DNA from: Pseudovirgaria hyperparasitica
Taxonomy: Eukaryota
Length of the DNA: 64,000 nucleotides
Reading direction: 5' to 3' (one strand)
NCBI GenBank assembly: GCA_010093815.1
Contig: ML996582.1
The notes under the pieces were generated by a model. The model was not told where the DNA came from. It saw nothing but the letters and a program-made list of their open reading frames with translations, and searched no databases. How positions within the stretch are numbered: the stretch's first letter is position 1; each line of letters begins with the position of its first letter. Below, one piece after another: positions 26,621 through 59,137 of this stretch. A program made the translations under genes and the position numbers.

Positions 26621-28183
26621 TTACGCAAACGCCTTCTTTACTAGTAACCGACAATCTCTATCGGGATACTTCGGAGTAGTAAATAACGTACTCTTTGTCT
26701 CCATGATTTTCGGCCGGCCTAATTCATCTAAGTTCTTTGGCCCATACACTGTGTCTTCTGGTAGCTTTACATCATAGTCTTTAAGAAGGTTAGATAAGAT
26801 TACCATCATCTCCGACCATGCTAGGCTTTTCCCAATACAGTTGCGATGACCGTAAGAGAATGCAAAAACGTTTCTTTTAAGATCTTCGTTCGCTAAAAAG
26901 CGTGTTGGGTCATATATATGCGGGTCCTTCCAAGTCTCGGCATGGTTATGTGCGCCGATCAGGTTGATAGCTACCTCAATGCCTGGTGGAAGATAGAAAC
27001 CCTGGAGCATGACCCCACTCGTGTGAGATACCCGGGGCATGAATCCCGAGGTGATGGGTGAGTATCTCAAGGTTTCATATACGCATGCCTCGAGAAATGG
27101 CAGTTGGGTACGACACTCCGCGAATGTGACCATGTGGTCACGTTTAAACAGGCTTCGTACTTCATCCACGGCACGTGCGTGGTACGCTGGGTATAAAGTC
27201 AGTAGATGAATCACCCAGGAAGTAACGAAAGAGGTCGACTCGCTTCCAGCAAGCTGTAATGCGATGCTTTCGGTGCGCACTTCATGGCGCTGCATTTTGA
27301 TTTTAGAATCTGGGTCTTCTGCGTCTAGAAATGCCTGGAGAAGGTCTATAGGTCTCTCCTTCGCGCCGTTCAGAAGCTTTCTACGTCGAATGTCGATAGA
27401 CTCGTTGGAATGTCGGATGAAAGCATGAAACTGGGATCTAGACCGACGAAGAAGGCGAGAGAAAGGCCAATGGCCGAGAAGTGGGAGGTTCTTCGTCATG
27501 CCAAGGTAAAAGCCTGTTGCCTCGATCCAGCGAATTATGGTATCATCGTCATTTGAAAGAGCGCTAAAGTCGCGCCCAAAGGCGAGGGCACCAATCGTAT
27601 CGAATGTTGCGTATTGTGTATCATTTCGGTAATTCACAATGATGGGGTTGCCTTCGTTTTGATCGATTAACATGTCCCATTTATCTCGGATGGCTTGGAT
27701 ACTATGCCGGACAATGAGCGGCTCCATCTGATTAAGAAAGCCATGAGTAAGATACGGGCCAAGCTGGCGACGGCGAAGGCTTGCATAGATGGGATCGCGA
27801 GCTGTGAAGATGCTTGGGTGACCGAGAATGTCGAGCATTCTGTAAACATCCGTCTTCCGGAAGTCTTGAGATGTCAAGATCTTCTTGATATCTTGCGGGT
27901 GACTGATGCTGACTCCATCTGGTCGATGGACGTAAATGTCTCCATATGTTTCGTAGTCATTCTGAACAGACTGAGATCCATTGCTGAAAATACGTTTGAC
28001 TATAGAATGCTTCGCACTAAGGCGGGACAGGAAAGATCCTGGGATATTGCGCAATGGAGAGAAGAAACATTGATAGATAACTCTATAGGCGATGGCTACA
28101 GCGACGATATATGCGACGATGCAGGGAGGTTCGATTGCTTCTGGGAGGGAGAACAAGCCTTTTCGATCTACCATGGCGCTCAT
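26621..28183 (-). CDS. Cytochrome P450 #1 (fusidane/helB-type, CYP5081-like), intronless
   Basis: N-terminal TM anchor, LAGSEST I-helix, ETLR, YDPTRF, heme motif [10 protein letters not shown]. First ATG at 28183 (the ORF track starts at TTG 28204). Confidence 0.92.
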
Positions 28184-28769
28184 TCTGTGATTTCCAGTTT
28201 GCAAAAGTGAAATCCTTCAATGGCTGGGTAAGAACTTTTTTATCTCGCCAAATCAATAGTAGCTTAGATATCCCAAGTAGAGTAGGAGCAACCTTGTGTT
28301 CTTTATCATGTCGTTGCAAGTAAGGGATGCTTGTAACTTTAGGTACTTGCTAGGAGTAGAGAAACTCGGTGGCGTGAGTGACGAACGATTCGCGGTAAAA
28401 GTGTACCTTCATGCTCGTTGGAAACGTTCAGAGGTCCCGCCAATGTCACGGTCGATTAAAAAGGTGTGCTCATCCCTGGACACATTGTCTTCCGACTTCT
28501 GTGAGACAAAATGACGCATGACCTTGCATTAGTATTAAGCGCCATGATGGAAAGCTAGTAAGAGCACCATTAAGTATCACTATACTCGGGTAAATTTTGC
28601 GACGATACGGAAACGCTAAGAATCTTTCCCCGTCACTTCCCCCCGAGCTTGGATCTTCTAGCGCACAGTTGAAGTATATTACAGTGAGAGATAAAGGGTA
28701 TGACAATCGAGCTAAGCGACCCAGATGAGACACAGCATCTAAGATAGACGCAGTCTTTGTTGACGGGAG

Positions 28770-30227
28770 CTACCACACGAGCTCACCAACATTTTCCCAG
28801 AACGGATCTACCAACATTCCTTTCATAGCGGTAGGATTACTGCTCAGCAAAACGTTCACTCCGTCTGTTGATGGCATAGGCGGTAGGAATGCGACTATAC
28901 TGAGACTGCTAGCAAAAAGTGGCGTCAGGCTCACACATGCTGGAGATCTGTAGCTAAAATCAGCATCGTAAAGCTTGAAATTGACCTAACTTGTACACAC
29001 AAGGAATGTCCTCATGCGACTAGCGGTCAATGCTAAGGGTCGTAGGTAGCTTGTTGGATGCGCAGATATAAGCTCAACGAACTCGGATACTAGCTGAGGG
29101 CTGACGCTGGACACTGTAGACTGCACCTGGGCTGCTGCATCTGCTAAGGTAGCTGCATTCGTAGGTCTTCTGAGATCATTGACTTGATCTCTAATCAGTA
29201 GCCCAGTAAGACAATTTTCTGTATAATTCTCTTTGACATTCAGCCGGGATCTCAGGTCAAAAGGGACTCGTACTGATGCATGTTCCTCGACTTGAGGTGG
29301 GCCCCTAAGTCAAGTTCAGAATCTAGATTGTTGATTTGTTTTGAGCTGGTTCTGTATTGACAGCTTTCTGATAAGAGCAACTAGGATATCATTGTCACTG
29401 ATATGAGATGTGCCGAAAATAAGGTGAGGCTGAAGCATTTGATGTAACTCGTTGAGCTTTCTCTGCGAAACATGGAACAGGTGTGCTTCGCCTTTGGCGA
29501 GCCCAGTGGTTTTACTCAGCATAGCACCCAGTGTCGTATGGGATAGCAACGTTGACCAGTCGATGATTACATTAGGAGTGGAATATATGGCATGGCTCGT
29601 GGGATCGATCAATACTTGGCCGGATGTAGTTAGATACGAGCGGACTATGCTTCGATCGAAGGAGTATGTTCTGCGAATGGGTGGTACGGCACTGTGGACC
29701 ATTCCGTACATTGTGTCGGCCCAGGAATTGACGAATACGAAGAAATTCGCATCATCGAAGGCATAATGGAGAACACTGATGAACAGGACCAGGCCACTGT
29801 TCTCCTTGAGTCGAATGACATGAACATTGAGCATGTGGATCTCACTGTCACTAGCAGTAGTGGCAATGGGTCCGACTGTGACCACGCTCGGGGGCCAGCT
29901 GCTTTACGCAAAGCCTGCGGTCTTGAGATCTGCAAAGTGAATCGTGAATTAAACAAACTCCAGGAACTCCGGATGGTTGATGTTATCAGGATCTAGTTCG
30001 ATGAGTATGTTTCCAGTCACCTTATGACGCAAGTGGCCGAGTAGAATTGAAAAGGTCTCGAGGGTATTAGCCAGGGCTTTCTTCAGTTGCTCAGTCGGCA
30101 TGAAGTCTGTCACACTTGAAGTGTTCTCAAAGACGTATGCGCAGGGGATAGTTGAGAACGAGCCTTGCATGTCCAGCGCCGATAGGGGTCATGCTTGTGG
30201 CTTGATAGAGCTGATGTATTTCTTCAT
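28770..30227 (-). pseudogene. BAHD/transferase-family O-acyltransferase pseudogene (helD-like)
   Basis: One continuous frame of 486 codons from ATG 30227 to TAG 28770, with six internal stops (30189, 29949, 29904, 29316, 29310, 28986). LSALD, HYAFD (HxxxD), VPFDLRSRL and YDADFSYR (degenerate DFGxG) align by eye to the intact gene at 40665-42089. Confidence 0.88.
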
Positions 30228-30876
30228 GTTGACGTTTACTAGTGTAGTCGAAAGTGTTGAATCGGGAATGCATTTGCGTCAGATATTACGGCGCGTTTTG
30301 GGCTTTGAGTCGACGGCTCTCCCGTTATCACCCGATTAGTAGCAGATCCCGAGGACAGCCATGTTGTCCACAACGTAGGTCTCAGGCCAGAAATGTCTCA
30401 GCTCCTCATGCCGACAGAGTATGCCCAAGATCCCAGCAGAGCTAAGGACGACCCCGGATGGGGACAGCACTCTATATCAAGGAGTTAGTTCGTAGCGTCG
30501 TGAACAACATCATCGATAAGAGTAGTGCGAGGTTGATATTGCAGAAGGACGAAATTTGACGCTGAGGAAACAAGTGGAGTCATGCGCTAAGATGACAAAG
30601 GGTAAGAGGTCTGTGCGTTCAATCAGACCCCCCCTCCTACCCTATTTTTCATTAACACCCCCTCCTCTATCTTGGGACGTATCTTACAGTGATCATACGC
30701 CTTATGTAACTACAACACGCTGTGTTTCAAATGAGCTCTTTCTGCAGTCTTGAATGTAAACTCGGACGCAGTCATGAAGCTAACCGACATATACATCAGC
30801 ATTGGATGACACTCCGAAAACAGCACTGGCGACAGTGTCACCCACCTCGAGAGACTCCTAGTCAACATCAAAGTCC

Positions 30877-33126
30877 TCACACAATCTCCACATCACCATA
30901 TCGTTTCACATACCGTCCTAGGGCCAAGAGAGTGAAATGAAACTTGTACAATGGATATCGCATGCCTCCTGGCGGGACAAAGACTCCTTCTAGAGTGCCT
31001 GGTAGCCAATCACCCATTGGCTGTTGAGCGTCCATCAAAAATTTGATGCCTTTAGCTACAGCCTCTTGGTCGGCGCATCCTGCCGCCAGCAATGCTATTG
31101 TAGAATAAGCTGTACACGTGACCTGGCTCCCCAACGGCTCCTGGACGTATCTCTTAACCTTTGTGCTCTCGATAGACTCTCCCCAGCCGCCATCGTCATT
31201 TTGATGCTCCAGTAAGAATCTGCAGGCTTGTCTCGTTGCAGCACAATTCTCTTCGGATCTTCCAACGCAAGCAAGACCTTGCAGGGCGAACATAGTCGCG
31301 TATGTGAAACACACTCCCCAGCTAGCATACCACCCGCCTTCTGGATATTGTGCCCGTAGCAAGAAAGCGACACCGCGATCTATACACTGTTGTATGTCAT
31401 GCGGCCGATATGATGGATAAGTCCGACTGAAAGCGGTCAGAGTCATGATGATCGAACTGGTACACTCTGGATATAACGTCTCGGTCATAACGTTGTCGTA
31501 TATCTCGGTGACGTTGAAAAGCTCCATAAAGCTTGGAGCCCGAATGGGTTCATACGATGAGAATCCACCACCACGGTTTTCCATGGCCATAATGAGGTCT
31601 ACCGCCTCTTTTAAGCGGCTATCGGAAATGCGTCTGCGTACCACGCCTGATTCCTGGAGTTGCATAACCACCTTCACAGCTTCAGCGGTCGTATCAGATA
31701 CTGCGTATCCTTGCTCGCGAGTGCTGAAACTCCAGGCTCCTTTTGTTGGTTGCCGATAAACATGGTCTATTGCCATTGGATCCTCGCGTATCTGAGAATT
31801 GTCTATGAACTCGAGAGCCTTCTCAAGAACAGCTTTGTTTTCGGGCTCCTTTGAAAGGTCACATTCGAGAACTGCCTGTACAGTCAAGACAGTGTCCCAA
31901 AGAGAAGTCCCGTTGGTTCCAGACGCTGACAGTCCTTCGCGGCACATCCACATGGGGTCTATGACGCGCGTCTGCATTCCTCTTACCCAATGGCTGCGAG
32001 GCCCATGAGCATGCCATAAAGATAACAGATTGGATGCGAAGCTAACCGGTGCAATGCTGAGATAGCTGGTGTTGTGGACTTCGGCTTCTATCTGAAAAAG
32101 CACCTCTTTTAGCGCTCTCCGCCGTATGAACGGGATCTTGTAGTGTTCAATCAGGCCTAAGATTCCAATTGCTGCTGAATGGAGTCGCGTCAAGGGCGCT
32201 AGACGATCATGAGAGCTTACATGCGTCCTCTGAGCGACCCAGTCCACGTTTTCATATGGTATCTCATGAATCTCCTGTCTTAGCTGTAGCACGAGCTCAT
32301 TTTGTGGCATCACCCAGCGATGGCCATACATATATGCCAAACTGACATACATGTTGCGAGTATGAACCCACCAATTACCCGGATTTAAGGGCAAAGCCTG
32401 AGGGACTAAGAGGACTTCTGCGACCAGTGGTATCATGCCATCCCATTCATACAGTCCGAGGACACACAACCACCACTTTCCAAAGGCAGGGATTGCTAAT
32501 GCACCTCCCATAGTCTTTAGACAACTTCGAGCCTTTTCCAAGACAGGGTGAATTGCTGGTAGTCCCAAGATTCGCAGCATGATATAGCTCATAGTTGTTC
32601 CGAATACTGTCGAAGGACTTTGGATGAACAATCCCCATCCGCCATCGGCATTGACCATATTCAACAAGTACCGACACATCTCAGCCTTCATAAAGTCTTC
32701 CAATGGCAAGCCAATGATATACATGGTGATCACAATTCCACTGGTAACGAAGAGCGGCCCGTCATCATTGCATCCCCAATGGCCATCCGAAGTCTGGAGC
32801 CGTTTCAGAAACTCCCAGCCGTGCGCCAGAGCTTGCTTCGGTCGCTTCGATGTTTTCATTTTTGGCATTTCGATGGGGAGACCAAGCCAGTACCGTTCTA
32901 GGAAGCTCTGTGGCTGGGTCTCACATTCCTCTTTTGAGCTCAAGTAGTGCCACACATGCCTACCATGCTCTACCTTGAGTCTCCATTGATCAAGGTTTGT
33001 TGCGTAGGGTCGTGCCGCAGCGGTATTCTCAAATACAGTACTGCTACAGACCTTCTGTGCGACGCTTGTTTGAACGGGGGTTTTGATCCCAGTCACAAAC
33101 GTCGAATCATCATGAGCTGTCTTCAT
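30877..33126 (-). CDS. Oxidosqualene cyclase, protostadienol-synthase type (helA/fusA-like), intronless, 749 aa
   Basis: QW repeats (QTSDGHW, NADGGWG, QYPEGGW, QNDDGGWGE, QQPMGDW), WGVCFTY, catalytic SDTTAE, and C-terminal GVFVPPGGMRY. Confidence 0.93.
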   Translation of the reverse strand: MKTAHDDSTFVTGIKTPVQTSVAQKVCSSTVFENTAAARPYATNLDQWRLKVEHGRHVWHYLSSKEECETQPQSFLERYWLGLPIEMPKMKTSKRPKQALAHGWEFLKRLQTSDGHWGCNDDGPLFVTSGIVITMYIIGLPLEDFMKAEMCRYLLNMVNADGGWGLFIQSPSTVFGTTMSYIMLRILGLPAIHPVLEKARSCLKTMGGALAIPAFGKWWLCVLGLYEWDGMIPLVAEVLLVPQALPLNPGNWWVHTRNMYVSLAYMYGHRWVMPQNELVLQLRQEIHEIPYENVDWVAQRTHVSSHDRLAPLTRLHSAAIGILGLIEHYKIPFIRRRALKEVLFQIEAEVHNTSYLSIAPVSFASNLLSLWHAHGPRSHWVRGMQTRVIDPMWMCREGLSASGTNGTSLWDTVLTVQAVLECDLSKEPENKAVLEKALEFIDNSQIREDPMAIDHVYRQPTKGAWSFSTREQGYAVSDTTAEAVKVVMQLQESGVVRRRISDSRLKEAVDLIMAMENRGGGFSSYEPIRAPSFMELFNVTEIYDNVMTETLYPECTSSIIMTLTAFSRTYPSYRPHDIQQCIDRGVAFLLRAQYPEGGWYASWGVCFTYATMFALQGLACVGRSEENCAATRQACRFLLEHQNDDGGWGESIESTKVKRYVQEPLGSQVTCTAYSTIALLAAGCADQEAVAKGIKFLMDAQQPMGDWLPGTLEGVFVPPGGMRYPLYKFHFTLLALGRYVKRYGDVEIV

Positions 33127-33674
33127 CTTTGATCCTTGGAATAGATGTCGAATATTAGTCTCGTATATCGACCAAGCTTGAGACTTCGAGTGTTTCTAGC
33201 GACGATTGGATGAAAGCACGAGGGGCTTCGGGTCGTCTAAATCATGAGTTACTCACGGGTCTGATATTTGAGGTTAAAATTTCTAGTATCATACAAATCG
33301 GCTCATTTGATGGTTTCGTTAATTACATATGAAACGTACCTGATCTTCCACAACGCTTTTAGATCAGAATGTTAGCTTGGAATCAAGCCCGAACTCGACC
33401 GGACCCACAGCGACATGAATACCCTACGTCCGTCAAGGCCAAAGCGTTCCAGTCACTAACGTCTCGTACTACATGGATGGGGGCTAGTTGCGCTTATAGC
33501 CTTATCACAACGTCGATTGCTCGGCTGTATGCAAAATGAGGTTGCATGACGCTAATGCAGCACACGGCACAACAGAAAGAGGACCTGAAAGTTACTAATT
33601 CTGCATTTCAACGACTAGGATACGAATGTAATACATGCCAATTCACTACCATGTTGATGTCTTCTTGCCGCTAC

Positions 33675-35333
33675 TCACTCATCGTTGACACGATCCTTCC
33701 GCTTTTGCAATATCATCCGACAGTCTCTCTCCGGCTTCGCAGGCATTGTCGCTACCCCCAGCTTCGTCGGCATGATTCTCGGTCGTCCTGTCCTAGGATC
33801 TTTGTTATGCGGGCCGAAGACACTGTCCTTCGGCAACTTGATATCGTAATCGCGGAAAAGATTCGCTATTGTGACCATCATTACGACCCACGCGAGGTTC
33901 CGCCCAATGCAGAATCTCGTACCATAAGCGAAAGAAAGCATGTTGCGCTTCGTCTCGAAGTTGTTCAAAAACCGGGTTGGGTCGAATTTGTCTGGATCCT
34001 GCCACGTAGTGGCGTGTACGTGAGCTGCGCATTTGTTGGTTGCTATCTCGGTCCCAGGCGGGATATAGAATCCCTTGATGGTGATACCCTTGGTATCTGA
34101 AACTCTTGGAAACGAAGTGCTTGTGGTCGGAATACAGCGGAGGGTCTCATAAATGACACACTCCAGATACGGTAACAGTTCCCTGCATTGCTGGTATGTG
34201 ATGACGGTCTTCATGTCGGGAAAGCCAGCGCGGACTTCGTCACGGACGCGGTCGAAATGCTCGGGGTAAAGCAACAGAAAGTGTATGATCCACGAAATGA
34301 CAGAAGAAGTTGACTCACTGCCACCAACAAGCATTGCAATACTTTCAGCCTGAACTTCTTCTGGTGACATATGTGTCTTGCCTGGAACGTCGAGATCTCT
34401 TGCATCCAGCAAGGCCTGAAGCAAATCAGCAGGTATGTCGCCTCCATTATGAATCTCTTCTTGGCGAATCGCCACGGACTCCTTGCTGAACTGTACGAGG
34501 TCGTCGTACGAGCCCTTCAGCTTCCATACTAGAGCTGAAAATGGCTTTCGTTTGATGAATGGAAAGTAATGAGAAAGTAGCATGTAAGTAAGAGTGTTGT
34601 TCACCCATTTGGTGTAGACTAGGTTGTCCTCCTGTAAGGCGTGAAAGTCTCTCCCGAAGGCCAGAGCTCCGGTAATGTCGAACATGGCCAGTTGTGTATC
34701 AGAACGATAGTTGATAATAGTATCCTCGCCGCGGACTTCGTTGTTTGTAATCAGGGTGTCCCATCTGGTTCGTAACGCTTTGCTCCCATATTTCAATATC
34801 AGATGTTCCATGCCCGCTAGATAGCTAACCGTGAAAAAGGGATGCAACTGGCTTCTTCTCTGATTAGCCTGTGCGGGATCTGTGAACGTGCTGACATTGG
34901 GAATCCCCTCATATTCGAACACCCGATACATGTCCGTCTTCCGGAACTCCGTGTTTGACAGGACTACCCGCGCGTCCTTTGGATCGCAGATAGAGACAGT
35001 ATTCGGTTTTGACAGATACACATCACCGTGCTGTTTGTAATCCGATATTGATGCTGCTTCAGCCCGACCGGTGAGCAAGTGTATCATTATACGGCTGCTT
35101 GTCACTCGAGCGAGAAATGGAGCTGGGATATGTCGAAGTGGGGAGCGAAAAAATGCATAATAGAGCGTCCAGACAGTTTGAACTGCGAATAGGATCAAGG
35201 TGATGCGTGTGTATCCCAGGCTGACGACATATGACTTTATTTCCAGGAGAACTTCGACTAGAAGATATTGCCGTATCCTACCATCTGAGGGGACCAAGTT
35301 TTCAGAAGCAAGTATATGGTCCATTGTAGACAT
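33675..35333 (-). CDS. Cytochrome P450 #2 (fusidane/helB-type), intronless
   Basis: VGGSEST, ETLR, FDPTRF, FAYGTRFCIG; paralogous to the other three P450s. Confidence 0.92.
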   Translation of the reverse strand: MSTMDHILASENLVPSDGRIRQYLLVEVLLEIKSYVVSLGYTRITLILFAVQTVWTLYYAFFRSPLRHIPAPFLARVTSSRIMIHLLTGRAEAASISDYKQHGDVYLSKPNTVSICDPKDARVVLSNTEFRKTDMYRVFEYEGIPNVSTFTDPAQANQRRSQLHPFFTVSYLAGMEHLILKYGSKALRTRWDTLITNNEVRGEDTIINYRSDTQLAMFDITGALAFGRDFHALQEDNLVYTKWVNNTLTYMLLSHYFPFIKRKPFSALVWKLKGSYDDLVQFSKESVAIRQEEIHNGGDIPADLLQALLDARDLDVPGKTHMSPEEVQAESIAMLVGGSESTSSVISWIIHFLLLYPEHFDRVRDEVRAGFPDMKTVITYQQCRELLPYLECVIYETLRCIPTTSTSFPRVSDTKGITIKGFYIPPGTEIATNKCAAHVHATTWQDPDKFDPTRFLNNFETKRNMLSFAYGTRFCIGRNLAWVVMMVTIANLFRDYDIKLPKDSVFGPHNKDPRTGRPRIMPTKLGVATMPAKPERDCRMILQKRKDRVNDE

Positions 35334-36042
35334 GATCTTCTAAGGTGTCAGTATGAAGAGTAAGCTCGAACTGAACAGTGGAGTTTGTAAAGCAAATACA
35401 GTATGAAAGGAAGAATTTCTAGGTATACGACCATGGGGAACTCGGTAAGCAAACTGCAAGTCGCGATATGGCTCCTGAGATCAAATGCAACTATACCAAT
35501 GGTAGTTTGGACTCTTGGACAAACAAATTATGGTCAGACGACTCCGATTCCTCTCCAGGGCCGCTTCCATGTTGTCACCCAAGCTTTAAAGTATGGATTA
35601 GTGCTGGCCCGTGTGCGAGAAAACTAAACAACGCATAGACTAATTCCAGTTTAGGGGGTAGAATGCCGACCTGTGTTTCGAGGTCCAGATAATATCCATA
35701 CATAGACTTCACACTTGATGCGATGTCATATGCTGACACTTTTAGGCGCGCAATTGGCCGAACACTGCATTAGGCCTTCAAGGTTGCCTCATATTCGGAC
35801 ATGGGTTACAGCTCAACGTGTAAAACACCAATCGATGCAAATCAACATGTACCTAACTGATGCGGTATAGCGGATGGATAATAGTGTTGGTCGCTAGCCC
35901 ATAACAGCGGTAAAGGTTGTATCGCTTCGTATTTCTTTTGTGGGAGCTGACCTTAGCATGCTAAAAGTGAACTTTTGCTTGACATCCGGCGTCGAAATCA
36001 TTTACTCTTACATCAGAAGCCACAGCTCGATCGTATCACGTT

Positions 36043-36861
36043 ATGCCAGAGTCAATATCTCCAGCATTTACCAGGCGAATAGCCATAGTCACTGGGGCAG
36101 CCCGTGGAGTCGGCTTCGCAATCAGCAAAGCTCTCGCATTGAAAGGCTACCTAGTCGTCATCAGCGATATCGATAGCATTGAAGGTACTCACGCGACAAA
36201 GAGCCTCAATGAAACAATGGGCGCCGGTACTGCTGTATTCATTCATTGTGACCTGGCTCGACTTTCTTCCATCGATAAGCTCCTTGAGTCGACTGTCCAG
36301 CAACTTGGGAGCTACAGTCTGCTTGTCAATAACGCTGGCTATCTACGAGCGCCTTTCCTCGCACTGTCGGCAGAGCATATGGAGCAGAGCATATCGGTGA
36401 ATTTAACTGCACCACTATACGCGTTGCAGCGTGCCGTTATGTACTGGAACGCGCATCCTCATATCGAGGCTCCTGCCGTCGTTACAGTGACATCGTCCTC
36501 ATCATTCAAGACCTATGCGTCCATTCTCCCATACGGCGCTGCAAAAGCTGGCGCTGCACAGTTTACATTTGCCAGTAGGGACTTTGGGCCAAGGATCAGA
36601 GTCACAGCTGTGGCCCCGACGGCCATCGCGACCGGATTTGAGCTGGGAAATATGAGGATTGCTACGGAGCAAGAAGGTCCTGGGTACACACCGGAAGATG
36701 CGATGAGAGCCATGGGATTGGAACGATTGAGTCCAGAGGACGTGGCCAATGAAGTCGTGAGATGTGCAGAGGATAAGGATATTTGGGGAATTGTTGTGCA
36801 TCTAGATAAGGCGAAAGGTGCGAAGATTTTCGGGGGGTATGAGGATTTCATGGGCGTGTGA
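36043..36861 (+). CDS. Short-chain dehydrogenase/reductase (helC-like 3-hydroxysteroid dehydrogenase/C4-decarboxylase candidate)
   Basis: TGAARGVG Rossmann motif, LVNNAG, catalytic Ser and YGAAK. The helC-like role is inferred from cluster context. Confidence 0.9.
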   Translation: MPESISPAFTRRIAIVTGAARGVGFAISKALALKGYLVVISDIDSIEGTHATKSLNETMGAGTAVFIHCDLARLSSIDKLLESTVQQLGSYSLLVNNAGYLRAPFLALSAEHMEQSISVNLTAPLYALQRAVMYWNAHPHIEAPAVVTVTSSSSFKTYASILPYGAAKAGAAQFTFASRDFGPRIRVTAVAPTAIATGFELGNMRIATEQEGPGYTPEDAMRAMGLERLSPEDVANEVVRCAEDKDIWGIVVHLDKAKGAKIFGGYEDFMGV

Positions 36862-36914
36862 ATATGTTATTGTAGAGCACTGATAGAATTACGAGACGTC
36901 TTAAGTATCTTTTT

Positions 36915-38492
36915 TCATATACACTGGCGCTTTCTTATAAGTATACGGCAGTCTCTCTCCGGATACTTAGGAGCAAAAACAATATGACACTTTGACGGCA
37001 TTAACGCAGGCTCCCCATTATCTCTCCTCCCGTGCGGGCGAAAAGCTTCACTACCGTTCCCAATTCCTTCCATATCAAATTCGTTTAGTAGGTTAGCAAG
37101 GATTGGCAATATTTCCATCCATGCAAGATTCCTCCCCAAGCAGTTCCTTACTCCATATGAAAATGCAAAGACATATCTCTTCTTATCTGTGTCTTCTAGA
37201 AATCGTTCTGGTCGAAACTTGTTGGGTTCAGCCCAAACATCAGTTCGATTGTTTAAAGCAATCAGATTAAAGGCAATATGCGTTCCCGCCGGAACGAGGT
37301 ACCCTTGCAATACGACGTCTGTAGACGCAAACTGAGGCATAAACCCTGATGTTATCGGAGTGTAGCGAAACATCTCATATATGAAGGCCTCGAGAAATTC
37401 AAGAACTCGACATTCAGTGTAACTGATTAAATGGCCCTTGGCGAATCGCGAGCGTACTTCTGTCTCAGCACGCGCTCGATAGTGAGGGTATAGTGTGAAC
37501 AGATGTAGTGCCCATGTCAGTGCCGCAGCGGTAGTCTCGCTTCCGGCGAGCTGCATGCCGAGGCTCTCAGCTTGGACTTCTTTGGCGGTCATAACGATTT
37601 TCGACTCCGGGTCTTGCGCTTTGATGAATGCCTGCAGCATGTCTTCTGGGACCTGTAATGCTTCGGCTTGATGCTTCTCAGGCGAGACTTGTTTATCGAG
37701 GAGTTGCTTCCGCCGTTTGACACTCTCTGCGGAGTATGCAAGAAAGTCCGCGTAGGCTGTCAGCGACGGACGAAGAAGGATAGAAAGGGGAAATTTAAGT
37801 AGCAGTGGAAAATTCATCCGTAGACCGACATATACTGCAGTTGATGAAATCCACCCAATGATGCGTGAGTCAGCAGACTCTAGGCTATCATCTCCTGTAG
37901 ATCTTCCAAACGCCAGTGTAGCCATGATCGAGAAAGTCGCGAGTTGAGTATCGTTACGGTAGTTCACAACCGCGGTATCCCTTCCATCTAGGAGACTGTG
38001 CCACTTCGATCCAATGGCTTTGGCGCCTTTTTGAAGAATAATTGACTCCATCCGGAGTAGGTAGCTACTAGTGAAATATGGGGCAAGTTGACGACGACGA
38101 CGACTTGCCATTGCTGGGTCACTGAAAGTAACGATGTTTGCTAGAGCCGGGTCGTGGACACCGTGATACATATCGATTTTGCGGAAAATAGACGAGCCTA
38201 GTACTGTGCGCACATCTTGCGGGTTGCATATTGTGATCGTATTAGGCTTGGAAATATATATATCTCCATAGGTGTTAAAGTCGTGAAGAGCGGCATCGAT
38301 CACTCGGGATGGAAGTCGCTGATATATTGCTCGAAGCGGTGTGAGTCGTGCTAGGAGTGGGCCTGGGATGTTCCGCAGACTTGAGAACAGCGTCACGTAT
38401 AAAACGTAGTAGCTAGACAACATGCAGACCCCAAGACCGAACGCCACCAAGGAGTCGGTCTGGTAGATTTTCAGAAATACAGTCTGGAGCAT
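36915..38492 (-). CDS. Cytochrome P450 #3 (fusidane/helB-type), intronless
   Basis: LAGSETT, EMFR, FRPERF, FSYGVRNCLG. Confidence 0.92.
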   Translation of the reverse strand: MLQTVFLKIYQTDSLVAFGLGVCMLSSYYVLYVTLFSSLRNIPGPLLARLTPLRAIYQRLPSRVIDAALHDFNTYGDIYISKPNTITICNPQDVRTVLGSSIFRKIDMYHGVHDPALANIVTFSDPAMASRRRRQLAPYFTSSYLLRMESIILQKGAKAIGSKWHSLLDGRDTAVVNYRNDTQLATFSIMATLAFGRSTGDDSLESADSRIIGWISSTAVYVGLRMNFPLLLKFPLSILLRPSLTAYADFLAYSAESVKRRKQLLDKQVSPEKHQAEALQVPEDMLQAFIKAQDPESKIVMTAKEVQAESLGMQLAGSETTAAALTWALHLFTLYPHYRARAETEVRSRFAKGHLISYTECRVLEFLEAFIYEMFRYTPITSGFMPQFASTDVVLQGYLVPAGTHIAFNLIALNNRTDVWAEPNKFRPERFLEDTDKKRYVFAFSYGVRNCLGRNLAWMEILPILANLLNEFDMEGIGNGSEAFRPHGRRDNGEPALMPSKCHIVFAPKYPERDCRILIRKRQCI

Positions 38493-39083
38493 GTCTCAGG
38501 GGTCGGCCGCTGATTCGTGATAATGTGGACGAGTGCAAAGTATTCGGAAAGAATGTCACTCCATCGAATGGAAGGACCATCAGGTCACCGATGTACTGAT
38601 ATGCAATGACATTTGATTAGATAAGATAGAAATTATACGAGGTCCGACCCGCGGATCGTCATGCCAGAACAGTGCGATGGGATGATAACGCGACCTCGGA
38701 AGACTGCTACGGATAAGTGCTCAAGTGGGGCCATCCATCCCGCATCCGCTGAATCCGCCCTAACCTAGGGAGGGGATGGGCCGCAATGCCAAGCGGCATT
38801 AGTGTACAATCTATGGATACACGCACCTCCATGGGTGTTGGTCGCGCGCTAACAAAGACGCAACACGGGGTATTAGGCAAACAATGGTATCCGTTCGACC
38901 GTGTTGGCGAAGGACCACGGCTGACTCAAAGATATGACTCAGATCAAGTGGTCGCAGACAATTCCCAACATTAGGCGTGAACAAAATTATGTCTATCCAT
39001 TAGCTGACTCCGGCTTGATCCCACCATCGACACATCATTGCATCACCTGTGGTGTCCATTATTAGCTATTCTTCAGGATTACT

Positions 39084-40607
39084 ATGTGGCAATACACTCT
39101 ATCCGGTTTTGTTATCTTCTTCATATTCACAATCTACCGGTTGATTTACGCTTTGTACTTTTCCCCTCTACGCACCATCCCCGGCCCTCTAATCGCCCGA
39201 GTCACCTCAAAGCGCGGCAAGATTGATCAGTTTTCTGGCAACGTATCCGTACGAGCTATACTCGATGAGCAGAAATATGGGGAGGTGTACGTTTACAAAC
39301 CCAATGCTGTCTGCATCAACCATCCGGAAGACATCAAATCTGTGCTCGGTTCTCAAGATTTTTTGAAGACCGGCTTCTTCGACATCTTTAACGACGGTTG
39401 TGTTCGAAATGTTGTCTCGATGCGTGATCCTATCCTCTCGAGTCAGCGGAGACGACAGATTGGACCTTATTTCAACTTCTGGCAGCTGGCGAAGATGGAA
39501 GATCTCATTCTACGACACGGGTACAAAGCGCTAAAGACCAAATGGGACGGCCTGATGGAGATGAATGCGTCTGGACAGACTGAAGTCAACTATCGTATTG
39601 ACACCCAGCTTGTTACTTTCGATATCATGTCTGCCGTTGCATTCGGACGAGATTTCGGATCCATTCGAAAAGGCAGCTCCTCTGTTCTGAAGTGGGCCGG
39701 TGTCATTATGTCTCTACTCGACTCTTCCTTTGTTCTGGCATTGCTCTCTTTATTGCCATTCTCACTCGTTATGAGGCCTTGGAAAACAATGTACCACGAA
39801 CTCGCAGTCTACAGTGATGAGTGTATACAAGACCGCAAATCACTGCTTGTTATCAAGGATAACAAGAAGCCCATGGATATGCTTCAAGCTTTTATTGACG
39901 CCGAAGATCCTGAGTCCCGAGCAAAGATGACACCACTTGAGGTTCAAGCCGAAAGTATCATGATGATGCTCGCAGGCTCGGAGACAACAAGCAGCGCAAT
40001 AATGTGGACGTTCCATCTGCTACTGCTTCACCCTTTTATATTAGCCACTGCAGTGCGCGAGATCCGCACCACATTTCCTAGTGCTCGACCATACACCATT
40101 ACCTTCAAAGATGTGCAGATAAAGCTTCCATACACCGAGGCTTGTATCTATGAGGCATTGCGTCACTCACCTACTACTGCTGGGCTGACGCCTCGGATAT
40201 CGTATACACGATCCATAACATTGCATAGTGGGCATATCATACCACCAAATACTGAGATATATGTGAATTTACGGTCGCCTAACATGCATGAGACTTTATG
40301 GTCGGAACCTCAAAGGTTTAATCCAGATCGATTTCTCGAAACAGACTCAAAGAAGAGTTTATTTACGTTCTCGTACGGACCACGGAATTGTATCGGGAAG
40401 AACTTGGCATGGGTCGAGATGCTGACGATCATTGCGAATGTATTGAAAGATTATGACATCTTCCTGCCGGATGGTAATATGTTTGGACCACACAATGTAG
40501 ACGAAAATGGATTTCCGAGGCTTCTACCGGCCAAATGCTTCATTGCGAGTTTCCCGTCTAACCCAGAGAGAGATTGCAAGATGATTGTACGAAAACATTG
40601 CGAGTGA
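39084..40607 (+). CDS. Cytochrome P450 #4 (fusidane/helB-type), intronless
   Basis: LAGSETT, EALR, FNPDRF, FSYGPRNCIG. Confidence 0.92.
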   Translation: MWQYTLSGFVIFFIFTIYRLIYALYFSPLRTIPGPLIARVTSKRGKIDQFSGNVSVRAILDEQKYGEVYVYKPNAVCINHPEDIKSVLGSQDFLKTGFFDIFNDGCVRNVVSMRDPILSSQRRRQIGPYFNFWQLAKMEDLILRHGYKALKTKWDGLMEMNASGQTEVNYRIDTQLVTFDIMSAVAFGRDFGSIRKGSSSVLKWAGVIMSLLDSSFVLALLSLLPFSLVMRPWKTMYHELAVYSDECIQDRKSLLVIKDNKKPMDMLQAFIDAEDPESRAKMTPLEVQAESIMMMLAGSETTSSAIMWTFHLLLLHPFILATAVREIRTTFPSARPYTITFKDVQIKLPYTEACIYEALRHSPTTAGLTPRISYTRSITLHSGHIIPPNTEIYVNLRSPNMHETLWSEPQRFNPDRFLETDSKKSLFTFSYGPRNCIGKNLAWVEMLTIIANVLKDYDIFLPDGNMFGPHNVDENGFPRLLPAKCFIASFPSNPERDCKMIVRKHCE

Positions 40608-40664
40608 GGACGGTCTCGAAGAAATAGTGCTGTTATTGGTCGAAGGAACGTAGTAGTCTATATC

Positions 40665-42089
40665 TCAATACACTAATTCGATACATTCACTGAAGTCACT
40701 ATTCCCTAAAAGCTGCTGCATTACCCACGGACGTAAAGTCAAAAACACATCAATATCGCCGTTTGCTTCTGGTCGGCTCGGCATGATAACGGCGACTGTG
40801 TTGCTATACGCCATTGGTGCTATAAATTCTGGCCTACCATTCCCGAAGTCTGTATCGTAATAGCCAAGGCGTGTTTGGTTGCTGAAAGCTTGACAAACCA
40901 TTGATGCGTACAAAACGTTTGCCCGGTGACCAAGAAGCGTGATTACACGCAATGCTCGTTTCAAAAAGGTCTCTATGCTCGCCTGTGACACCTCTGTCAC
41001 AGTATTCCGAGAGATGAGTGCCACCTCTGCGATAGGTTGTACCGCTTTAGCGGAGATCGGGAGGCGGAGAAGAGACGTTGGCGCAGTGACGTATAATCCA
41101 ATCGCACAACTCCCAGAGTATCTCTCTGGGACCTTTAGGCGGTGTCGAAAGTCGCAAGGCACGATTGCTGACAAGGACTCGGGCGGTGAAGACTTAACAC
41201 TAGGGGGGTAAGAGCTCTGGAAGAAAGCCATTGTGAACAGGGAGACAATCACGTCATTGGAAGACACCTTCGTGCCGAGCGATAAAGTAGCGGCTTCATG
41301 CTGTACACCCTCAATGAAGGATCGTTTGACTCGGAAGAGATGGCTCTCTAACACGGCAGCCGAGTCCTGTTTCTTCGAAAATAGAACGAAAACTTCGAGT
41401 AAGCAGCGAAGCAAGAGTGACAGCCCTGCTACCATGTATGTCATAAGGTTCCATGGTTCTCTGGCAGGCGGTTGTAGGTCGGCTCGAAGCCTCTCGTACA
41501 TGAAGCGTCGACTTAGCAACGGTAGGTGGTAGCGTCGCGGGTCATGCGATGGAAGCCGTTTTGAACACTCATTTGCCCAGTCCTGATAAAACTGGTCACA
41601 GCCTTTTGCGTCAAATACGCAATGTGCAATGCGAATTCTAATGACAACGCCACTGTTTTCCGCCAGGCGTACAATGAGGACTTCTAAAAGCTTCGAGTAC
41701 GATGCGATGGTGGTTCCTGATGAGTTGACACGAGGATCCTGGACATTGATGCCATTGGGCCAGGAATCACGATGGAATGAGGCTTCGCGGATCTCACAGA
41801 ACTTGGTGGAGCTACCAGTTTCCTCAAATGATGGCAAGTTCAGGTCAGATGGGTCAACAATGATGCTTATTGATGTCCCACTGCGCATGGCTCGCCCAAC
41901 AAGAATTGGAAATCTCCAAAGTGAGGCGTAGAGAGAAGCCTCCAGCCGCAGTCTAGGCATGAAGTCTATGTTTGATGCATCATTATTTGCATAGAAAAAG
42001 ACATTGGAAATGTAGAGGTGACTTGGAATGATATCCAGAGGTGAAAGCTCATACTTTGCTGGCTCGAGGTAGTTCAAAGTGGAATCCAT
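40665..42089 (-). CDS. BAHD/transferase-family O-acetyltransferase (helD-like), intact, intronless
   Basis: LSPLD, HCVFD (HxxxD), DTDFGNG (DFGxG). First ATG at 42089 (MDSTLNY). Confidence 0.88.
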   Translation of the reverse strand: MDSTLNYLEPAKYELSPLDIIPSHLYISNVFFYANNDASNIDFMPRLRLEASLYASLWRFPILVGRAMRSGTSISIIVDPSDLNLPSFEETGSSTKFCEIREASFHRDSWPNGINVQDPRVNSSGTTIASYSKLLEVLIVRLAENSGVVIRIRIAHCVFDAKGCDQFYQDWANECSKRLPSHDPRRYHLPLLSRRFMYERLRADLQPPAREPWNLMTYMVAGLSLLLRCLLEVFVLFSKKQDSAAVLESHLFRVKRSFIEGVQHEAATLSLGTKVSSNDVIVSLFTMAFFQSSYPPSVKSSPPESLSAIVPCDFRHRLKVPERYSGSCAIGLYVTAPTSLLRLPISAKAVQPIAEVALISRNTVTEVSQASIETFLKRALRVITLLGHRANVLYASMVCQAFSNQTRLGYYDTDFGNGRPEFIAPMAYSNTVAVIMPSRPEANGDIDVFLTLRPWVMQQLLGNSDFSECIELVY

Positions 42090-42699
42090 CCTTGCTTTCG
42101 AGTTAAAGAAGCCCAAGCCGTGTGTTTTCCGTACTCAAACTTCCAGTGTCTGGATATAGAAGTACGCAGAGGGATTCATCGGCACCGAACTTAACTTCTG
42201 AGTTATGATCATTATTAGTCAATGAAACGGGCTTTGGTAATGAAAAACACTATATACCATCTAGTCTGTGTGTGACAGACAGCCTGCTTCATGAAAAGGA
42301 CCGACCTTATAGAACAAGTGGTGTCAGCAGCGAGGCTCGCGCGGACTCTACTAGAGACGCGTGTGAATACCAGCGCTAATGCAAGGGTCTCGTATGGATT
42401 CGATATAGCCCAGGTGTCTAGCCCTTAGGGCCTCAGGCGGTTCCCCTGCAGTGTAAAGGTCACAGCGTATCACACTCCTGGGTGCGATCGCGTTTACTAT
42501 ACAGCATCGGTCTGCAGCCAGGAGCAAAGCCGTCATTCGGCTGATACGGCTGGAGTATGTTATACAACAAGCATGCGTCTAATATGCAGTCACATCAATT
42601 CTTAACAAGGAGCGAGATCCCGAATTCGAAGGACATACCACTTTCACCCAGCAAGGCAGTCGGACCGATGTCTATTCTCCACCAGACGAAAGACTACGC

Positions 42700-44378
42700 A
42701 CACCGACGTTGATAAAGAGGTCGACGTTCTTATCATCGGGAGTGGGGCAACAGGCCTTACGGCAGCGTTACGATGTAATAATGAGCGTGGACTAGATACA
42801 ATGGTCGCATAAAAAATGTCCAAGATTGGAGGGACAACTACATACCCTGGTGGTGAGCTTTGGGTCCCAAACAACCATCCTCGCCAAGCTGCCAGAGTCG
42901 TTAATTCTTACGAAAATGCGTTTCAGTATCTGGAAGCCATCATCGATGATGTTGGACCTACATCCTCTTGTACAAGGAAGGAGGCATTCTTAAAGGCAGG
43001 ACCTACTATGGTTGGAAGCCATCGGGTTCAAATGAAACCTTTCACTTGGCAGTTCAGACTCTTATCCAGACAAGCCAGGAGCCCTTGTCATTGAGCGAGC
43101 TATTGAGCCAAAGATATTCGACGAGAAGAAACTGGGTGTCTGGAGGAAACGCCCGAATAGGCCCCCTGGAAGAGCAAGACCGCCTCTCTATACAAGTGAA
43201 GGCAGCAAGGCACTTCTCTCCGTGGCAACATGGGGTGGTAATTTCCAACTACTTCGCATAATAGCAAGATGGATCGGGCGAAAGTTGCTCGGTCAGAACC
43301 AGTCACTATGGGCTTGAGTCTAATCGCACAGCTGCTAGTCATTAGTATCCGGCGTGTCATTAGTCTAAGAACAGGAATGGCGTTGGTTAGACTTCTCAGG
43401 AATTCTAACACCAACACCTCAGACGGTGCAGTGCTAGAGCAGTCTGGTAGAGAGCTGATTATACGCACAAGGAAGAGTGTAATACTTGCTGTAGGTGGCT
43501 TTGCGTACAACAAAGACATGCGTGCCACATACCAGCCGTTTTTCCAAGCGTCGAATGAACGTCCGTCCCTAAGAGCGATACAGGTGACGCTATAAGAGCG
43601 GGAATGAACATTGGCGGGGCACTCGCACTTATGGATGAAGCTTGGTGGGACCAACAATGATCGATCCAGCCAGCGGCCTACGGGTTTTTCATCTTGTTTG
43701 GAAGAGCCAGGCCGCATTTAATCATCGTCGACTCGAGCGTCGAGCGTTTCATGAACGAAGCACAAAGCTATATTTACGCTGGTCACGAGTGATACAGACG
43801 GCATAGAGAATGTGGCAACAAGGTGAAAGCTATCCCTGTTTGGATAATCGTCGACTCGCAATTCATAAGAGAAGTACCCCTTAGGACGATTGATGGCAGG
43901 TTCGTCCTTAAAGAGGGCTATCGACACGGGTTTTCTTTTTGAAGGGAGGACTATCTTAGAACTAGCACAAATTGTTGGTGTGAACGTCCCAGGACTCAAT
44001 GCGACCATTCTACGGTTCAACCAGATGGCGCGACATGGGAAAGACCTAGACCATAATCGAGGCGGTAATGCTTATGACCGACAGTTTGGAGATCCGCTCT
44101 GCAAGCCAATTCCCAACCTGGGCACGATCGAGAGTGCACCATTTTTTGCGCTCAAGATCTTTCCTGGTGATCTAGGCACGAAAGGCGGTCTGTTAACGAA
44201 CGGACATGGCCAAGTTCTTAACGAAAATGGCGACAAGATCTAAGGACTTTACGCTGCGGGCAATTCCTCTTCTTCTGTCATTGGTAGGACTTATGCGGGC
44301 GTAGCCTCAACTCTCGCACTGGCTATGACATTTGCTTTCCTGGCAGCCGAGCACATGTCTGGCGCTAATCAGGCTTAA
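42700..44378 (+). pseudogene. 3-ketosteroid-delta1-dehydrogenase (FAD-dependent, helE/KstD-like) pseudogene
   Basis: DVLIIGSGATGLTAA, stop in place of E in (E)K at ~42810, IGGTTTYPGGELWVPNN, RKSVILAVGGF, LMDEAWW/PT (frameshift ~43650), IIVDSS-ERFMNEAQSY, PGDLGTKGGLLT, stop at 44241 before GLYAAGN, natural stop at 44378. The start is uncertain. Confidence 0.88.
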
Positions 44379-44462
44379 GATGTAGAAAGCAGAAGTATGC
44401 TGTAGTTCTAGCCATGGAGAGTCTAACGCGACTATTGCCCATGTTGTAAGGCCGTGTAGGTT

Positions 44463-45137
44463 TGCATGCTCTTTTATATAGTAGATATATATGAGATTGA
44501 TAAATGTTAATTTTTCTAGTTCATTATCTATGAGTTTACTATCTATAAGAAGTATTTATAAAGTCTCTTTAAGGAGATAGAGAAGGATTTCGAGATACTA
44601 TGGAAGTTTCTATAAGATGATTTATATAAAAAAATACGTTAGGACTTAGAGATACAAACGTTCTCTCTCTACTCTCTCTTTTCTTGAAAATTCAATTTTT
44701 TTATCATAGACTGTAGTAATCAGTTCAGAGCTCAAGAAGTACATCATGATATATAGATTCAATATGAGGTAGAGATATTTCATAAACCTCTATAACGGGT
44801 GAGCAATCGTGTGTGAAAACAGAAAGACGCCAAGAGAGTTAGGTTCCACCTACAGGCTGTTCTATCTTCTATATTGTTGAAAATCCTTCTCTATCTTCTT
44901 AAAGAAACTTTATAAATACTACTAACGGATAATAAACTTATAGATAATCAACTTAGAGATAATCAACTCATAGATAATAAGCTCATAGATAATCGACTCG
45001 TAGATAATCAACTCAAAGACAATCAACTCATAGATAATCAACTTATAAATAATGAAATCATAGAAGGATTAATAATAATCTATTCCATATATATCTACTT
45101 CTATATATCCTTATATGTAAGTATAGAGAGCTGCAGA
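44463..45137. mobile_element. AT-rich foldback/MITE-like relic with long inverted arms and 15-bp tandem repeats, at right border of the cluster
   Basis: 44519-44606 is an imperfect reverse complement of 44866-44952; outer segments ~44463-44518 and ~45055-45137 also pair. Tandem atagataatcaactc units at ~44940-45050. Confidence 0.7.
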
Positions 45138-46282
45138 TAGAAATTTGGGGAGGGATTTACAGCGTCGGTAGTATATAGCGGCTAAAGACGAAGGCGCACG
45201 TAAGTCGGTTTTACATACGAAGTGCTAACTTAAATAAGTAACGATACCATGCAAGAGAGATAAGTACAAAATGAACATGGCGTTCCATAACAACACACCC
45301 AAATTCGTACTGGTAACAAAGGAGATGACATCTAGTAAGACAATTTGTGGACCACATACTAGCAGGACACATTGGACACGACCAAATAGGCACTTGTAAG
45401 CTGTGCCATACCCCTCTAGCTATTTACAGGTTTTGCCTTGAACTAACTAACTTGACTCAGCTAGCCTCTGCTAACTGATCTATGATGACTGAAGCGCCGG
45501 AGCCTTCGGCTATGCAACATGCAAATCACAGTTTCACATCGCATTGTGGTCACTGCAGTACCATACAGCTTCTGAGTGCTACATCATCCCTGTGAAATGG
45601 ATCTCTACTAACTTCATACCGAATCACTGCTCGATGAAATGATATAAAGTCACGGATCCAACTCGCCTGCACGGTGGTGGGTCCATTGACATCCGCCCGT
45701 ACTTAGCGAAGGCAGCTTCCGTCTGCCCAAGCAGCAAGCTTTGGGCATAAGTAGTGCGCGTTCGACAGATATCATGCCAGGTGAGCACTTAAGTAAACCA
45801 CTCATGATAAGAAGACACTAAAATATCTCTACCATAGGGAACTTCTGCCATATCATGGGGGTAAGACCTATACAAGCATTTCAACGCGGAGCCGCCCGCC
45901 GGAACGGGCCGGGGGGGGGGGGGGGGCAGTTGGTAATCTTCCGGGTCCCTTGCCACTTACTATTAGCCTTACAAGTAGATACCTGGTTCGTGCGTCAATT
46001 AGACCATAGGCTAGCGTCTTTTCGCATCTAACTTTTCCTTGAATGGGAAGTGCATACTGCGCATAGATACTGGCTGGATAGATACGTTTCCTTTACACCA
46101 GAGTCTTGTACATCCTTTAAATACGTACGTGATCAGAATGCTATTGTATCTAGAACACCTTCCACAGCCGATCATCTTTAAAGAACTATTGTGCCTTAGA
46201 CAGTCAGACTTCGGGCTACTCTTGTTGAGCTGTACAAGTACGTGGTTAATATTGGACCTCTACGTGAATAGCATCCAACAGC

Positions 46283-50508: not shown

Positions 50509-51444
50509 TCACACGTGTTTGAATTTCGAATACAGCCACAAGACCGTGGCTACGCTACCTGTTGCCAGAAGCATGTTCAAGCCGACAAGGATATTTCTTG
50601 CACGGCCAAAGCTCTTCATTACGTTTTGGAACTCCTTCGTATCATTGACCCGTGGAAATGGAATCTTCTCCCCTTTTTCATTCAACGGCAACGGCTTGCC
50701 TAGAAACTTGCATAGCGGCTCCCAACCCTCTTTCACATTCATCTCCAGAAAGCGCTCCGGGGTGTCCTTCACAATATCATATACAGCCTCCTTATGCTCT
50801 CGATATGATGCCGCGCCGCGCTCCGGATTGAAGTCAAGAAACTTGCGCATATCGCCATGCAGGGCAATCTTCTCATTCAGCGTCTGAGTTGGTAGATCTG
50901 GTAAGAAAAACTGGTAAATTCGCGCCCATAGCGATGTGCCTGGTAGCATCATTCTTGTCAACGGTACTAATGTGTTCTGCACACTCGCGTACCATTGTTC
51001 CGGACTATCGCGCGTTGTGAGGATGATCTTGGCGTCGGGATATGCGGCGGCAAGTTCAGGCATGAAGAATATGGTGGGCGTATCTGTCGTCGCCATGCAA
51101 TGACCTAGCAATTGGTCCCAGTCGGCACGTGTGTAGGGTTTACCTGTAGCCTCGTATTTGGCAGCTAGCGCTTCACACCACATGGCGGCTTCGGAGGTGT
51201 TTTGATCGCGCATGATGTTCCGCACTGGAAGATGTCAGTTCGGATCATTGATAGAGTGAGTAGTGGTAAATAGCATACTATGATATGTGTCTTTGTAACC
51301 CAAGATCTCCAAGGCTTCGCGCAGGCTCGAGGTGCCCGTTCTGCTTGCGCCGAAGCCAAGCACCTGCAATGGCACTTGACGAGTGCATTCTCGTCTGTTC
51401 TCTCCTCTTGATGGTGCAATTGCTTTGAGAATGATACTCGCCAT
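50509..51444 (-). CDS. P-loop sulfotransferase-like protein (Sulfotransfer_4 / 'NAD-dependent epimerase'-annotated family), 2 exons
   Basis: VLGFGASRTGTSSLREALEILGYKDTYH / intron ~51226-51277 / AYPDAKIILTTRD...WYAS, EGWEPLCKFLG, PFPRVND; C-terminal hydrophobic anchor. Confidence 0.8.
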
Positions 51445-59052: not shown

Positions 59053-59137
59053 TGCGAGTTGGGATGCAATTGCAGTAGTAGTGACCGGAAGGACGGCAAG
59101 TCAAAGGGAAGAATTAGGAATCTGTAGAGGTAGGTAC

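Follow-up and report, generated by a model that had tools for sequence, protein, structure and literature searches.

Fusidanes are antibiotics that inhibit EF-G, and the gene cluster for one of them, the helvolic acid cluster of Aspergillus fumigatus, was reportedly described by Mitsuguchi in 2009. The subject of the present work is a cluster of the same type, spanning about 18 kb, in a window of 64 kb of fungal DNA (contig ML996582.1 of Pseudovirgaria hyperparasitica; the window here always means this whole stretch, of ~48% GC and with a single gap of 126 N at 19797–19922). Lv 2017 (PMC5696383), on which our statements about the A. fumigatus genes and their products draw, names fusidanes as one of a small number of antibiotic classes that show no cross-resistance with drugs in common use, and gives the A. 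fumigatus gene order as helA, helB1, helB2, helC, helB3, helD1, helB4, helD2 and helE. An A. oryzae strain, AO17, equipped with helA, helB1, helC, helB2, helD2, helB4 and helB3 made compound 17 together with its 3-hydroxy form, 18. After compound 17, HelD1 acetylates the 6-hydroxyl group and HelE adds the 1,2 double bond. Compound 17, for which a CAS number is given, was already known; it belongs to the fusidane class and acts against Gram-positive bacteria. The minimal inhibitory concentrations (MICs) against S. aureus were 1 µg/mL for compound 17, 2 µg/mL for helvolic acid, 0.5 µg/mL for helvolinic acid and 16 µg/mL for the 6-O-acetylated 1,2-dihydrohelvolic acid.

Two other described systems are close. 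According to the main text of Cao 2018 (PMC6437595), the fus cluster of Acremonium/Waltergamsia fusidioides has six early genes in common with the hel type (the equivalents of helA, helB1, helB2, helB4, helC and helD2) but includes fusB1, a non-CYP5081 P450 which is an 11-alpha-hydroxylase, and fusC1, an extended short-chain dehydrogenase (SDR) which is a 3-ketoreductase, and no helB3, helD1 or helE. The hel cluster of Metarhizium, a patchily distributed hel-type cluster outside the Eurotiales, is reported as complete and makes helvolic acid and 1,2-dihydrohelvolic acid; the main texts describing it (PMC5088523, PMC9602595) present hel-type clusters as patchily widespread and ascribe this to horizontal transfer.

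The cluster in the window resembles that of A. fumigatus in having the same nine gene families, all within about 18 kb, and in a one-to-one clade match for helA, helB1–helB4, helD1 and helD2. It differs in that helD1 and helE are pseudogenes, in its gene order (B4, ψD1, A, B3, C, B2, B1, D2, ψE) and in its proteins, which are only 44–66% identical to the Aspergillus ones. Its intact gene set is exactly that of AO17, but whereas AO17 is a laboratory construct of A. fumigatus genes, the set in the window is the outcome of natural decay, with a product that is predicted. The window does not carry the fus-type gene set: all four P450s fall in helB clades and there is one SDR. Since it has a helB3 orthologue along with remnants of helD1 and helE, the cluster descends from the helvolic acid rather than the fusidic acid type. 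Its proteins lie in the same clades as those of Metarhizium, whose cluster, in contrast, is reported as complete. In the main texts consulted no natural hel cluster with both helD1 and helE dead was found reported, although the fusidane survey of Li et al. 2020 may list partial or decayed clusters. The locus is a natural variant of a well-known cluster type, and its predicted end point is a known potent intermediate.

We read positions 26621–44378 as a helvolic-acid-type fusidane cluster in which the helD1 and helE orthologues are dead, the seven other genes are kept and the predicted end product is compound 17, and we would give this reading a probability of about 0.7. A preliminary description of the same DNA had listed a cyclase, four P450s, an SDR, two acyltransferases and a 3-ketosteroid delta1-dehydrogenase (KstD) in 17.8 kb, with one acyltransferase and the dehydrogenase dead and seven genes intact. 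Stop-to-stop open reading frames (ORFs) and Pfam recover all nine elements at the coordinates given below, and both the lesions and the open frames are seen directly. The seven open genes are single uninterrupted ORFs without introns. On the minus strand lie the orthologues of helB4 (P450, 26621–28183, intact, 520 aa; ORF 26621–28216; Pfam p450, E 1.9e-60), helA (oxidosqualene cyclase, 30877–33126, intact, 749 aa; ORF 30877–33195; Pfam SQHop_cyclase, N- and C-terminal), helB3 (P450, 33675–35333, intact, 552 aa; ORF 33675–35339), helB2 (P450, 36915–38492, 525 aa, the ORF intact and the protein unusually divergent; ORF 36915–38495) and helD2 (C-16 O-acetyltransferase, 40665–42089, intact, 474 aa; ORF 40665–42134; Pfam Transferase PF02458, E 3.2e-16). 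The plus strand carries the helC-like SDR (36043–36861, intact, 272 aa; ORF 35983–36861; Pfam adh_short, E 1.5e-34) and the helB1 orthologue (P450, 39084–40607, intact, 507 aa; ORF 39066–40607). The Pfam p450 matches on the four P450 ORFs have E values of 1e-60 to 1e-63. Public gene models coincide exactly with the frames read from the chosen Met for the cyclase (749 aa), three P450s (520, 507 and 552 aa), the SDR (272 aa) and the transferase (474 aa), and the public helB2 model (521 aa) is contained within the 525-aa frame. When 11 short fragments were scanned with Pfam, two gave matches, one to Transferase (18.1 bits, cut-off 22.7) and one to FAD_binding_2 (E 8.7e-10).

The first of the decayed genes, the pseudogene of the helD1 orthologue (C-6 O-acetyltransferase), occupies 28770–30227 on the minus strand. 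The intact transferase (aa 1–474) aligns to this dead gene, ACYLTRANSFERASE, at 28773–30227 (minus strand) as one high-scoring segment pair (HSP) in one frame, with 27% identity (E 1e-31), and the read-through is colinear in one frame with full-length relatives (a Nemania protein, aa 1–489, E 1e-117). That single frame is interrupted by six premature stops, TGA, TAA, TAA, TGA, TGA and TAG (30189–30191, 29949–29951, 29904–29906, 29316–29318, 29310–29312 and 28986–28988), at sites where the relatives have I, C/S, W, F/L, W/S and Q; a seventh stop falls where the relatives end. The motif DFG(F/D)G, of the DFGWG type, has decayed to DFSYR. Two contigs which derive from a second sample and a second study (X3 record 13 and X4 record 20) span 28668–30532 with no difference and no gap, so the stops are not an assembly error. 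Repeat-induced point mutation (RIP) was considered as the origin of the stops and rejected: the GC content and both RIP indices of the pseudogenes resemble those of the intact genes.

The exhaustive search with the helD1 read-through, which returned 176 proteins with E up to 0.001, has two clear best relatives, a transferase of Nemania serpens (P0270, 43% identity) and an unnamed 393-aa protein of A. fumigatus (P0271, 44%). The former shares a 506-kb contig with Nemania proteins of the helB4, helB1 and helD2 clades. In A. fumigatus CNMCM8714, P0271 has the locus tag _000578, four after that of helB1 (_000574), and P0416 and P0417, members of its 90% cluster, stand three accessions after helB2 in two other A. 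fumigatus strains, making three strains in total. These offsets match the helD1 slot in the order of Table 1 of Lv 2017 (helA, B1, B2, C, B3, D1), which is why we take P0271 to be A. fumigatus HelD1; the Atlas names of this candidate give only the generic "Transferase family". In an IQ-TREE phylogeny of 57 transferases (rows of at least 380 aa out of 59 considered), the read-through, the Nemania protein and A. fumigatus HelD1 form a clade with support 100, apart from helD2. The preliminary description had made its predicted product depend on the dead transferase being the helD1 orthologue, and the tree and the gene order together bear this identity out.

The second decayed gene, a KstD pseudogene of helE position and family, runs along the plus strand at 42668–44378, as pieces in three frames. 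Its best solved relatives are the KstDs 7p18, 4c3x and 8jbz, with which it is colinear over residues 8–559, fumarate reductases being far weaker; against 7p18 the pieces match, in order, residues 8–99 (E 1e-11), 241–285 (E 0.0095; 1e-4 with 4at0), 295–398 (E 3e-15) and 394–559 (E 1e-35). The Pfam FAD_binding_2 match lies at 43869–44243. Four in-frame stops (42810–42812, 43658–43660, 43790–43792 and 44241–44243) are situated inside aligned sequence, one of them at a conserved Glu following the GxGxxG fold. Reading of the frames gives at least four frame changes, near 42695 and at 43020–43054, 43140–43300, 43539–43564 and 43870–43885. Those at 43020–43054, 43539–43564 and 43870–43885 are not introns, because what they leave (34 nt, 26 nt and an overlap) is too short. 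Two further changes are inferred, one near 42695, past the sole ATG upstream, and one within 43140–43300, for which an intron is in principle conceivable. No significant KstD match in the Protein Data Bank (PDB) was obtained for the frame-0 piece 43036–43314, and its coding call depends on a YPDxPG-like stretch only. By its family, its position in the cluster and the lack of another KstD in the window, the relic is best regarded as a putative helE orthologue. The two pseudogenes show contrasting decay: over 1.46 kb ψhelD1 has six nonsense codons but not one frameshift, and over 1.7 kb ψhelE has four nonsense codons in addition to at least four frame changes.

The identities of the intact genes were established from sequence comparisons. 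Of the 8000 candidates scored in the cyclase search, 196 proteins had an E value of 1e-50 or below. Among the best 120 of these 196, the closest relatives other than the protein itself are named protostadienol synthase or helA (66% identity for a protein from the Joint Genome Institute (JGI), 65% for A. lucknowensis helA and 63% for A. fumigatus), and identity to lanosterol synthases is 39–44%. In a FastTree phylogeny of 116 rows the cyclase falls in a 43-row clade with A. fumigatus HelA (support 99), apart from the lanosterol synthases, so that its grouping with HelA and the named protostadienol synthases argues against a lanosterol synthase. For the P450s, 140 of the 7761 candidates in a profile search had an E value of 1e-60 or below, and the tree has 88 rows. 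The four P450s of the window are 42–45% identical to each other, and each belongs to a separate clade, with support 100, which contains a named helB1, helB2, helB3 or helB4. The P450 at 26624–28183 clusters with helB4-named proteins (support 100; 62–74% identity to these and to unnamed relatives), that at 33678–35333 joins A. lucknowensis helB3 and P0136 (support 100) in a clade of three rows only, that at 36918–38492 groups with helB2 of A. fumigatus and A. lucknowensis (support 100), and that at 39084–40604 with Arthroderma helB1 and a Metarhizium robertsii protein named "CYP5081A" (support 100). Having one member in each of the helB1–helB4 clades, one of which includes that CYP5081A protein, the set is of the CYP5081 type.

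The intact transferase is 45–49% identical to helD2-named proteins and to a JGI "C16-acyltransferase", and lies within a 26-row helD2 clade (support 100) of the tree of 57 transferases. The transferase profile search had 27 matches among 8000 candidates scored, all in the helD2 clade; the helD1 relatives came solely from the exhaustive search. The SDR translation carries the TGxxxGxG, NNAG and YxxxK motifs and is helC-like by family, catalytic motifs and place in the cluster. At the level of sequence, orthology is thereby shown for seven of the nine genes (helA, helB1–4, helD1 and helD2). The closest homologues of the cluster proteins are 44–74% identical, and in a collection of 15 billion proteins four of the window proteins are singletons at 90% identity (nine sequences were submitted, five of which were not present as delimited). 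The cluster must therefore come from a host without a close sequenced relative that carries it.

The main argument for maintenance of the seven open genes is the excess of intact codons in them over what the two dead ones would predict. Lesion densities are six nonsense codons in 482 codons for ψhelD1, and four nonsense codons plus at least three secure frameshifts in ~560 codons for ψhelE. At the ψhelD1 density, 44.8 nonsense codons are expected in the 3,599 codons of the seven genes, in which there is no disabling lesion (P = 3.5e-20); the densities of both pseudogenes give ~35–45 expected lesions (P below 1e-15). The probability that any single intact gene stayed open by chance is between 0.00009 and 0.034, and selection can have been absent from all seven together for no more than ~10% of the decay time (P = 0.01). 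Because no lesion is seen where ~45 are expected, purifying selection has kept helA, helB1–4, helD2 and the helC-like SDR open. The catalytic motifs are also present (heme Cys, EXXR, HxxxD, YxxxK and the DTTAE-type Asp motif). Changes at sites invariant in the other members of each clade number 0/158 in helB4, 2/61 in helD2, 5/170 in helB1, 6/169 in helA and 8/139 in helB2.

Several points weigh against this interpretation. Of 28 proteins, the helB2 orthologue is the one changed at the most invariant sites (8/139, among them P477I and, in a conserved P-R stretch, R387Q). Its end branch is also the longest (0.77, the median being 0.19). Its heme Cys, EXXR and I-helix motifs are retained, but the protein may be impaired, and the pathway would then be blocked at C-16. 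Enzyme activities are extrapolated across only 44–74% identity, and the pathway product is predicted here from the genes. The helC-like and helE-like assignments follow family and position, and the ψhelE lesions were seen solely in two runs which may be the assembly's own source. Finally, intact paralogues of helD1 or helE are possible elsewhere in the genome.

As a rival, the whole cluster could be a dying relic, its pathway already non-functional, for instance through an impaired helB2 or lost regulation, and its seven open frames simply unhit so far. Two genes are certainly dead, and helB2, on its long branch, deviates at invariant sites more than any other member of its clade. Against this stand the ~35–45 lesions expected in 3,599 codons where none is seen (P below 1e-15, with single genes at 0.00009 to 0.034) and helB4, which has none of its 158 invariant sites changed. 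If function was lost only very recently, in the final ~10% of the decay time, this would be compatible with these figures, and we consider a dying cluster unlikely, though it is the strongest of the alternatives.

It is somewhat less probable still that helvolic acid or another fully tailored fusidane continues to be made, the missing steps being supplied by unrelated enzymes or by intact genes of helD1 and helE type that lie elsewhere in the genome. The main text of Sun et al. 2022 notes that homologues of HelB1 and HelE are absent or non-clustered in some fungi containing the oxidosqualene cyclase, and the acyltransferase and KstD families are rich in paralogues (the acyltransferase search alone gave 176 matches with E up to 0.001). 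However, the copies in the cluster would not decay if they were needed, unless they had been replaced, and tblastn with all cluster proteins found no further copy of a cluster gene in the 64-kb window (27 HSPs, 0 outside the known loci).

The public 410-aa model P0269 of the dead acyltransferase starts at an internal Met past the first stop and hides the other five in three in-frame "introns" of ~60, 57 and 51 nt. That the gene works, with its stops spliced out in this way, is very improbable, since the three pieces left out by the model, among them the region of the DFGWG-type motif, line up with coding sequence in six relatives, full-length or partial, the model must begin beyond the first stop, the transcript-like X3/X4 contigs pass through all three pieces unspliced and all other cluster genes are intronless. 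The in-frame introns of P0269 are an annotation artefact, and one which represents a hazard: the model would let cluster-mining software score helD1 as intact.

If the seven-gene cluster is functional, its pathway can be outlined from the A. fumigatus enzymes; the tested enzymes are 44–74% identical to those of the window. Oxidosqualene would be cyclised to protostadienol by the helA product, followed by oxidation of the C-4 beta-methyl group (helB1), hydroxylation at C-16 (helB2) and subsequent acetylation (helD2), oxidation of the C-21 methyl group to a carboxylate (helB4), 3-dehydrogenation and decarboxylation by the SDR, and C-6 hydroxylation with C-7 oxidation (helB3), where the pathway would end. 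The end product is probably 16beta-acetoxy-6beta-hydroxy-29-norprotosta-17(20)Z,24-diene-3,7-dion-21-oic acid, that is 1,2-dihydrohelvolinic acid (C31H44O7), compound 17. A 6-deacetyl, 1,2-dihydro product had been predicted in the preliminary description, and the same seven A. fumigatus genes did yield it in A. oryzae (Lv 2017, PMC5696383), which by analogy speaks for the prediction. Judging from the MICs cited above, the predicted product is probably at least as potent as helvolic acid.

Fusidane diversity has so far been widened mostly by engineering. The locus would be a natural counterpart of the engineered seven-gene strain, with sequence evidence for a selected, shortened pathway, and a worked example of end-product change through gene death. 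A more speculative extension, which we hold to be possible but doubtful, is that the losses are not mere decay but selected or compensatory streamlining, with the seven-gene pathway maintained toward a more potent and less decorated antibiotic. The second loss would have been favoured after the first, because loss of HelE alone gives a product with an MIC of 16 while the additional loss of HelD1 gives one of 1, helvolic acid itself having 2 (Lv 2017, PMC5696383). If true, this would be a natural "less is more" case in antibiotic biosynthesis.

The cluster is flanked on one side by genes of housekeeping type (a RIX7-like AAA ATPase, a Snf7-family protein, DcpS and UCH) together with a HET-domain gene. 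This HET gene and the short GT..AG introns would point to a filamentous ascomycete as the host. The other flank begins with a delta(24)-sterol-reductase-like FAD protein of 506 aa (46283–47803, plus strand; Pfam FAD_binding_4, with PDB matches to the FAD domain only), 1.9 kb past the dead helE and beyond an AT-rich spacer (GC 0.40). The three nearest Atlas clusters listed for it are named Delta(24)-sterol reductase (score 0.98) and all 30 matches share one Pfam set. Fusidanes retain the 24,25 double bond. As a bolder addition to the streamlining reading, this gene may have been recruited to reduce that double bond in the side chain, in which case the product would be a 24,25-dihydro fusidane not described before. 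Further along are genes which resemble those of secondary metabolism: a sulfotransferase (50509–51234, minus strand), a tyrosinase (55197–56474, minus), a methyltransferase (58156–59100, minus), an MFS sugar transporter (61433–62929, plus) and the start of an AMP-binding enzyme (63374–64000, plus). The spacer itself, 44376–46282, has borderline RIP-like indices (TA/AT 1.09). A 36-nt piece of it (44556–44591) is found again on a different contig in runs X1 and X2, and the source runs have a "goes back 70" joint at 44931–45000; a repeat or a small tandem duplication is the probable explanation.

The X3/X4 contigs form gene-sized blocks with uncovered intergenic DNA between them. They look RNA-derived, although contigs cannot prove RNA, and they serve here solely for the stretches that they bridge; their near absence over helD2 (41216–42483) and over the KstD relic is not evidence on expression. 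One X3 contig skips 67 nt at 34433–34499, bounded by GTATGT..AG on the plus strand and thus antisense to the helB3 orthologue; the same contig is without 2 nt at 35256, in codon 26 of that gene. A spliced antisense transcript combined with an assembly error or polymorphism may account for both.

A metagenome scan with the oxidosqualene cyclase alignment, made with generic patterns, produced 599 matched stretches, 592 of which are relatives, the best being 37% identical. Most listed loci are at 23–30%, presumably the level expected of bacterial squalene–hopene cyclases. Close relatives of every hel family searched (cyclase, P450s and both transferase types) also occur in the Kickxellales (Coemansia, Martensiomyces, Linderina and Kickxella), and Calcarisporiella thermophila has relatives of the cyclase, of the helB1- and helB4-clade P450s and of the helD2-type transferase. 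These proteins (P0037–P0052, P0196–P0240, P0272–P0279, P0017, P0128–P0129 and P0243) fit published ideas of an old origin or of cross-phylum transfers.

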